Assembly (NCBI RefSeq): GCF_036507355.1
Contig: NZ_AP027877.1
DNA: 64,000 nucleotides
DNA from: Escherichia coli
GTDB lineage: Bacteria > Pseudomonadota > Gammaproteobacteria > Enterobacterales > Enterobacteriaceae
Direction: 5' to 3' (one strand)
A program made the position numbers and the translations under genes. Shown in pieces: positions 17,290 to 17,400 of this stretch. Position 1 is the first letter of the stretch, and each line of letters opens with the position of its first letter. The notes below the pieces were generated by a model. The model had not been told where the DNA came from, did not search any database, and worked only from the letters and a program-made list of their open reading frames with translations.

Positions 17290-17400
17290 GTTGTTCATGT
17301 CGGATGCGGCGTGAACGCCTTATCCGACCTACAAGATCGTGCAAATTCAATATATTGCAGGAAGTATGTAGGCCTGATAAGCGTAGCGCATCAGGCAGTT
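17290..17400. repeat. BIME (two REPs in opposite orientation) downstream of tktA
   Basis: GTTCATGTCGGATGCGGCGTGAACGCCTTATCCGACCTACAAG and inverted GTAGGCCTGATAAGCGTAGCGCATCAGGC; flanked by two copies of the hairpin AAGGGCCGCGAAAGCGGCCCTTT (17247-17269 and 17421-17443). Confidence 0.75.

Follow-up and report, generated by a model that had tools for sequence, protein, structure and literature searches.

The unoccupied Y-type REP downstream of tktA matches the guide of a resident IS621-type element at all 11 target positions and is probably a usable, non-preferred acceptor site

The 64-kb window analysed here, by which we mean the whole stretch of Escherichia coli DNA, contains an ORF at 15205-17226 that is tktA, an assignment confirmed by the gene order of relatives (speA, speB, loiP, tkt, a prohibitin-family gene and cmtB). 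Further upstream, a 243-aa ORF at 10927-11658 (+) lies between speA and speB, and its equivalent in LD91-1 is the hypothetical protein WP_000758915.1. The tktA and prohibitin genes are convergent, and the interval between their stops (17226 and 17446) holds an extragenic REP together with the following features:

17247-17268, + strand: first, tktA-proximal copy of the hairpin AAGGGCCGCGAAAGCGGCCCTT, a direct repeat of family D3
17297-17332, + strand: Y-type REP hairpin that the sequence-only reading had flagged, recognized from its sequence, a predicted hairpin and membership of direct-repeat family D1
17322-17332, + strand: 11-nt target ATCCGACCTAC at the end of the tktA Y-REP, equal to LTG plus RTG complement of the resident bridge RNA (left target 17322-17328, CT core 17329-17330, right target AC 17331-17332)
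17333-17375, + strand: BIME linker, an L-type motif between both REPs, matching Rfam RF02751 (ES036/CssrF sRNA)
17368-17398, - strand: inverted Z1-type REP of the tktA BIME, ending in ATCAGGCCTAC (17378-17368), a natural target of canonical IS621
17421-17442, + strand: second copy of the hairpin AAGGGCCGCGAAAGCGGCCCTT, followed by a T-run (terminator-like), a direct repeat of family D3

The segment at 17297-17332 is an ordinary Y-type REP that forms the tktA-proximal arm of a BIME composed of a Y REP, an L linker and an inverted Z1 REP. The sequence at 17297-17337 is catgtcggatgcggcgtgaacgccttatccgacctacaag, with a stem of GTCGGATG.GGCG and CGCC.TATCCGAC and a CTAC tail, and a minimum free energy hairpin is predicted over 17299-17328, giving an imperfect palindrome of about 35 nt. 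In this it resembles other E. coli REP/BIME elements, being likewise a 35-nt imperfect palindrome of the GCCGGATGCG...CTTATCCGGCCTAC type that is extragenic, belongs to a multi-copy class and has an inverted Z1 REP as its partner beyond a conserved, ES036-matching linker (53.5 bits and E=3.4e-9 against RF02751, for which the gathering score is 37.6). Its tail carries the variant ATCCGAC rather than the commoner ATCCGGC, at roughly 1 versus 5 copies per 200 kb sampled. Partial matches to Rfam naRNA4 (CssrE, REP-derived) also fall on REPs at 12744-12785, 14082-14177 and 17293-17329. The GC-rich direct repeats of AAGGGCCGCGAAAGCGGCCCTT bracket the BIME at a spacing of 174 nt (17247 and 17421), and alignment showed the 174-nt BIME unit to be absent in WP4-S18-ESBL-09, single in the window and in 14EC033, and present as a tandem double in strain 3059, which suggests gain, loss or amplification through recombination between the hairpin copies. 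Some strains carry ATCCGTCCTAC in place of the tktA target sequence, and K-12-like strains such as LD91-1 have neither the prohibitin gene nor the tktA BIME.

An IS621-type element lies 4.5 kb upstream of the tktA REP, inserted in a second Y-type REP between speB and loiP:

12753-12786, + strand: left part of the occupied speB-loiP Y-REP, ending in ATCCGACCT; its right part, ACGTT..., resumes at 14066
12787-14065, + strand: resident IS621-family element with the ATCCGAC guide, 1279 nt counting one CT core
12801-12977, + strand: bridge RNA, 177 nt, with coordinates mapped onto the published numbering (PMC11208158)
12978-13958, + strand: intact IS110/IS621 recombinase gene, 326 aa

The element begins TGTATTATCC... 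and ends ...ACAGTATCT. It has the same 1279-nt length as canonical IS621 (Durrant et al. 2024, PMC11208160; Hiraizumi et al. 2024, PMC11208158) and differs from it at 19/1279 positions (98.5% identity), most of them synonymous changes in the recombinase gene, with three amino-acid changes. The two also share the donor ends ACAGTATCT/TGTAT (a slash marks a junction throughout), the CT core, the 177-nt bridge RNA architecture, the RTG GUAG, the donor-binding loop, the catalytic residues, REP 3'-tail targeting and the 11-nt target logic. All five residues defined as catalytic in PMC11208158 (D11, E60, D102, D105 and S241) are present in the recombinase, an identical protein matches Pfam PF01548 and PF02371, consistent with a DEDD RuvC-like domain and a Tnp domain with catalytic serine, and near-identical proteins carry the PGAP name 'IS110-like element IS621 family transposase'. 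The uninterrupted speB-loiP allele of E. coli 14EC033 (L001:2814) reads ...GCCTTATCCGACCTACGTTCGGCACCCGTAGG..., from which the pre-insertion target is ATCCGACCT/ACGTT; comparison with this empty allele reveals the CT core at both element junctions and otherwise zero target duplication, as in other IS621/IS110 insertions.

The same speB-loiP site, ATCCGACCT/ACGTT, is occupied in LD91-1 by an IS621 with the canonical guide (LTG ATCGGGCCT; L002:6088-7366), and 23CRST025 and CH423 also have IS621 at this locus. One ancestral insertion common to the window and LD91-1 was considered, the flanks diverging by 1.5-2.3% and the IS by a similar 1.5%, and was set aside. Because each IS has identical or almost identical copies elsewhere, it is more likely that the two insertions were independent or that the IS was replaced by recombination.

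The guide is where the resident element departs from canonical IS621. A bridge RNA with target- and donor-binding loops is encoded at the left end, as is characteristic of IS621/IS110 elements, and only three positions set it apart from the canonical molecule, with C for G at nt 53, A for G at nt 55 and a change at nt 177. The LTG at nt 50-58 (12850-12858) is consequently AUCCGACCU in the resident element versus AUCGGGCCU in canonical IS621, or AUCCGAC versus AUCGGGC in its first seven positions. The RTG at nt 77-80 (12877-12880) is GUAG, which pairs with CTAC, and the extended RTG at nt 74-76 is UGC, for which the pairing partner at target positions 12-14 would be GCA. AU (nt 81-82) and GU (nt 166-167) serve as the handshake guides, and the donor-binding loop is unchanged. 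In the published post-exchange scheme the donor-loop handshake guide GU would pair with target positions 7 and 6, and U167 would thus form a Watson-Crick pair after strand exchange with the A found here at position 6, where the canonical G would give a wobble.

Published work provides the framework for reading these guides. The IS621 target is 11 nt and programmable, with a 7-nt left target, a CT core and a 2-nt right target; the LTG pairs with the bottom strand at target positions 1-9 and the RTG with the top strand at positions 8-11; and perfect target matches are strongly preferred, with an RTG of only 4 nt (PMC11208160; PMC11208158). Cleavage occurs after the core T (PMC11208158), and extended RTG pairing makes targeting more specific and is seen at some of the sites with more abundant insertions (PMC11208160). 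Under these rules the resident LTG AUCCGACCU and RTG GUAG specify exactly ATCCGACCTAC, and the tktA REP is therefore an 11/11 match: positions 1-7, ATCCGAC (17322-17328), equal bridge RNA nt 50-56, the CT core stands at positions 8-9 (17329-17330), and the AC at positions 10-11 (17331-17332) is complementary to the RTG, GTAG in DNA letters, at nt 77-80. The resident guide in this way addresses the Y-REP tail ATCCGACCTAC, whereas the canonical guide addresses the Z-REP tail ATCAGGCCTAC, of which the window holds two copies, both on the - strand (17378-17368 and 59803-59793).

The sequence-only reading had proposed that the tktA REP is an empty site with the same 11-nt core as the occupied one, and the sequence bears this out. 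ATCCGACCTAC stands at 17322-17332 with no IS inside it, and the empty 14EC033 allele confirms the occupied target; the 9-mer ATCCGACCT, as that reading had said, is common to the element leader (12850-12858) and the tktA REP (17322-17330) through the CT, its third copy in the window being the left IS junction (12778-12786); and the two sites diverge from the third base after CT, with ACG at the occupied site and ACA at tktA. The 11-mer ATCCGACCTAC has a single intact copy in the 64-kb window (17322-17332, +) and occurs in 0/100 shuffles, and an 11-mer scan with a fixed CT core and up to 2 mismatches identified the tktA REP as the only perfect intact site in the window. One site with a single mismatch to the resident guide (position 6) was found, ATCCGGCCTAC at 14089-14079 on the - strand, and it sits within an inverted REP, 14 nt off the IS right end.

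This match is far above chance, yet it is not an independent coincidence, because both sites are copies of one Y-type REP subfamily. The same 34 nt, ATGTCGGATGCGGCGTGAACGCCTTATCCGACCT, make up both 12753-12786 and 17297-17330, and direct-repeat family D1 has three members within 5 kb, namely the tktA REP, 12740-12787 and 14132-14179. A purely fortuitous origin of the common 11-mer, in favour of which stands nothing but its short length, is contradicted by the shuffles and by the 34 identical bases from one REP subfamily, and we regard it as already refuted, with a probability close to nil. The occupied speB-loiP site and the tktA REP thus have the same REP body and the same 11-nt target, and they differ in their surroundings. 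Positions 12-14 are GTT at speB-loiP and AAG at tktA, so that extended RTG pairing amounts to one Watson-Crick pair and one G-T wobble at the former and to no Watson-Crick pair at the latter (AAG against the ideal GCA); the occupied REP adjoins an inverted REP, whereas the tktA REP adjoins the L linker.

Natural targets of this guide indicate that the bases past position 11 carry limited weight. Supplementary Data 2 of Durrant et al. 2024 (PMC11208160) lists 35 natural targets for the guide class TBL_ATCCGACCTAC, and 31/35 carry ATCCGACCTAC itself. Of these targets 18 have G at position 12, 15 have A and 2 have T; since A occurs in 15 of the 35, bases past position 11 do not restrict insertion; extended RTG pairing, absent at the tktA REP, is correspondingly an optional rather than a defining feature. 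The entry seq30 is exactly the speB-loiP site of the window, which is also listed under the other guide class as TBL_ATCGGGCCTAC_seq680 besides TBL_ATCCGACCTAC_seq30. Three further entries (seq6, seq9 and seq28) are of the tktA REP subtype (GCGGCGT[G/A]AACGCC) with the right flank ACAAA, and seq18 contains the 14-mer ATCCGACCTACAAG, identical to that of the tktA REP; the tktA site itself is missing from the 35-target list. The sequence-only reading had allowed that its proposal would fall if recognition needed an exact match beyond the CT core, and the spread of bases at position 12, together with seq18, contradicts such a need.

The leader with the ATCCGAC guide was absent from 5,426 complete RefSeq E. 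coli genomes, in which the search returned 12,359 places and the best identity, 97%, corresponded to the canonical guide, and exact-pattern scans for the same leader gave 0 in genome_contigs (species representatives) and 0 in metagenome_contigs (JGI). Exact lookup of the recombinase sequence found seven contigs (L004-L010; Logan, NCBI and ENA), and in 6/7 the IS is 100% identical to that of the window, ATCCGACCT guide included; the samples with the variant are ERR3330519, SRR5150002, SRR17480487, GCA_905398585.1, GCA_016660925.1 and GCA_021425525.1. The six contigs with identical IS, which are independent draft or Logan contigs, rule out a sequencing or assembly artefact as the source of the guide change. 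The remaining contig, L007, encodes the same protein with the canonical guide and 5 nucleotide differences, and is possibly a recombinant or an intermediate between both guide lineages. In L004 the copy adjoins the aconitase gene and occupies a different REP (...GATGCTGGCGCATCTTATCCGACCT/AC), and collapsed repeat contigs share a left flank, ...CTTATCCGACCT, and a right flank of AC or ACA, the pattern given by multiple copies sharing an 11-nt target. The intact ORF with its catalytic residues, the unchanged donor ends ACAGTATCT/TGTAT and the identical copies at other sites or in collapsed contigs together argue that the resident element is probably active. The aconitase-adjacent copy, along with the roughly 31 published targets, also contradicts the prospect, raised in the sequence-only reading, that relatives might have no insertions at such REPs.

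Occupancy of the tktA REP itself was sought with a left-junction chimera of 400 nt, made of 200 nt of the tktA 3' end and REP up to CT followed by 200 nt of the IS left end. At a coverage of at least 80% this query found IS621 in the tktA Y-REP in 0 of 5,426 complete E. coli genomes, and the predicted right junction (the RE end followed by ACAAGAT..TGCAAATTCAA) was found in 0 metagenome_contigs and 0 genome_contigs. The comparison across relatives that the sequence-only reading had suggested is thus negative for the tktA REP and positive for other ATCCGACCTAC REPs, where insertions exist. As evidence against competence the occupancy nulls are weak, because none of the three collections contains the ATCCGAC-guide element. 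As a positive control, the mirror query for the Z1 arm (ATCAGGCCT/ACATA, - strand) found 9/5,426 complete genomes; the canonical guide was verified in one of these, AMSCJX02 (L019), in which the junction, inspected by eye, reads ...CTTATCAGGCCT/TGTATT... and the LTG is ATCGGGCCT. This control establishes that the method detects occupied sites and that the tkt-prohibitin BIME tolerates IS621 insertion. Canonical IS621 also occurs occasionally in Y REPs, at ATCCGGCCT/ACGGT (araJ-mak), ATCCGGCCT/ACAAAG (yiiF-fdhE) and ATCCGACCT/ACGTT (speB-loiP, in LD91-1), and the yiiF-fdhE insertion (L021) lies at a Y-REP/L-linker boundary of the same architecture as the tktA BIME.

The number of comparable sites in a genome could be gauged in outline. 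The 400-nt tktA locus is matched at 99% or more in 43 genomes and at 95-99% in 456. A 60-nt probe gave a median of 9 places per genome and also matches other BIME copies, and its 938 records at 99% or more are unusable as a count of the exact site, as short 100% alignments are included. The search for other target REPs proposed in the sequence-only reading was carried out as a sample, covering the window and 200 kb of 14EC033; the latter contained 1 ATCCGACCTAC, 5 ATCAGGCCTAC and 5 ATCCGGCCTAC. Extrapolation of ATCAGGCCTAC from 200 kb gives about 120 per genome, in line with the published 129, the number of sites used experimentally by IS621 in BL21(DE3) (PMC11208160). On the same basis ATCCGACCTAC sites are estimated to be of the order of tens per genome, a very imprecise figure that derives from 1 site in 200 kb.

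Taken with the published targets of the same guide class, the 11/11 guide match supports the view that the tktA REP is a candidate second insertion site, with the qualifications that its occupancy was found nowhere, that there are tens of such sites per genome, and that it is probably not top-ranked. We consider it likely that the empty tail of the tktA Y-REP is a usable acceptor for the resident element; it is not expected to be a preferred one, as it offers no extra RTG pairing at positions 12-14. The principal alternative is that the REP is effectively refractory, being kept empty because extended-RTG pairing is lacking (ACAAG, where ACGCA would be ideal) or because of its surroundings, for example the hairpin of the REP, convergent transcription or a protein bound at the adjacent L linker. 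Consistent with such a barrier, occupancy is zero in the 5,426 complete genomes and two collections even though the Z1 arm 40 bp away is occupied in 9, and there are no Watson-Crick pairs at positions 12-14, where extended pairing is reported to raise specificity (PMC11208160). The force of the empty genomes is reduced by the absence of a matching-guide element from those collections, which gave the site no opportunity to be used, and by the double mismatch, at positions 4 and 6, that the tktA site presents to the canonical guide. Moreover, ACAAA flanks in the same REP subtype are found among natural targets of the resident guide class, as is one ACAAG, and a canonical IS621 insertion is present at a Y-REP/L-linker boundary built in the same way (L021). 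We therefore judge a refractory site unlikely.

A further alternative holds that the resemblance is irrelevant to transposition, the REP being a host BIME associated with mRNA 3' ends or terminators and with nucleoid-protein binding, and the resident element dead or fixed. The REP/BIME features and the Rfam matches to REP-derived families accord with a host role, as do the polymorphism of the BIME unit among hosts (present, absent or doubled) and the 64-kb window, which contains no second IS copy. A dead or fixed element is nevertheless hard to reconcile with an intact recombinase ORF retaining its five catalytic residues, with an intact bridge RNA and both ends intact, or with the 100% identical copies at another locus and the collapsed multi-copy contigs, which indicate recent mobility, and we hold this reading to be very improbable.

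If the tktA REP is usable, as we favour, the published mechanism suggests how an insertion would proceed. The element would leave as a circle and express its bridge RNA and recombinase, upon which the tktA REP would be a competent acceptor. The LTG AUCCGACCU would pair with the bottom strand at positions 1-9 and the RTG GUAG with the top-strand CTAC at positions 8-11, and the top strand would be cut at 17330/17331, just past the CT core. The new copy would lie in the same orientation as the resident one, with CT at both ends as the sole target duplication. Such an insertion would be expected to create the junction k-mers CTTATCCGACCTTGTATTATCC, after the tktA-specific flank GTGCGCGTTGTTCATGTCGG, and ACAGTATCTACAAGATCGTGC.

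The leader has a further property that touches on the origin of the guide, in that the guide region resembles a REP tail. Two copies of the 12-mer TATCCGACCTTG lie 72 nt apart, one at the left junction (12777-12788) and the other at the LTG (12849-12860), and with their context the match is 15/16 (GCCTTATCCGACCTTG versus GCCGTATCCGACCTTG). This repetition, together with the canonical-guide IS621 found at the same speB-loiP site in other strains, raises the idea that the ATCCGAC guide allele arose by short-patch copying of the flanking target into the LTG. We think such an origin extremely improbable, and against it stands the canonical guide, which has G at position 4, where its usual target has A, in more than 12,000 copies. 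Were it true, bridge RNA guides would be rewritable from an occupied site, retargeting the element to that class of REP, the tktA REP included.

In summary, nothing at this locus departs from the known IS621/REP system, and the prediction made here is sound but routine. The finding matters little beyond annotation, and it opens no new question because the guide class and its REP targets had already been published (Durrant et al. 2024, Supplementary Data 2; PMC11208160). What it illustrates is that the 11-nt bridge RNA rule allows the possible landing sites of an IS621-lineage element to be read from sequence, and that natural guide alleles partition the REP classes between them. The tktA BIME offers one arm to each guide: Z1 to the canonical one, with IS621 present there in 9 genomes, and Y to the ATCCGAC one, for which it is a predicted usable site. 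In the source strain, the tktA REP marks a neutral intergenic position at which a new IS copy could appear.
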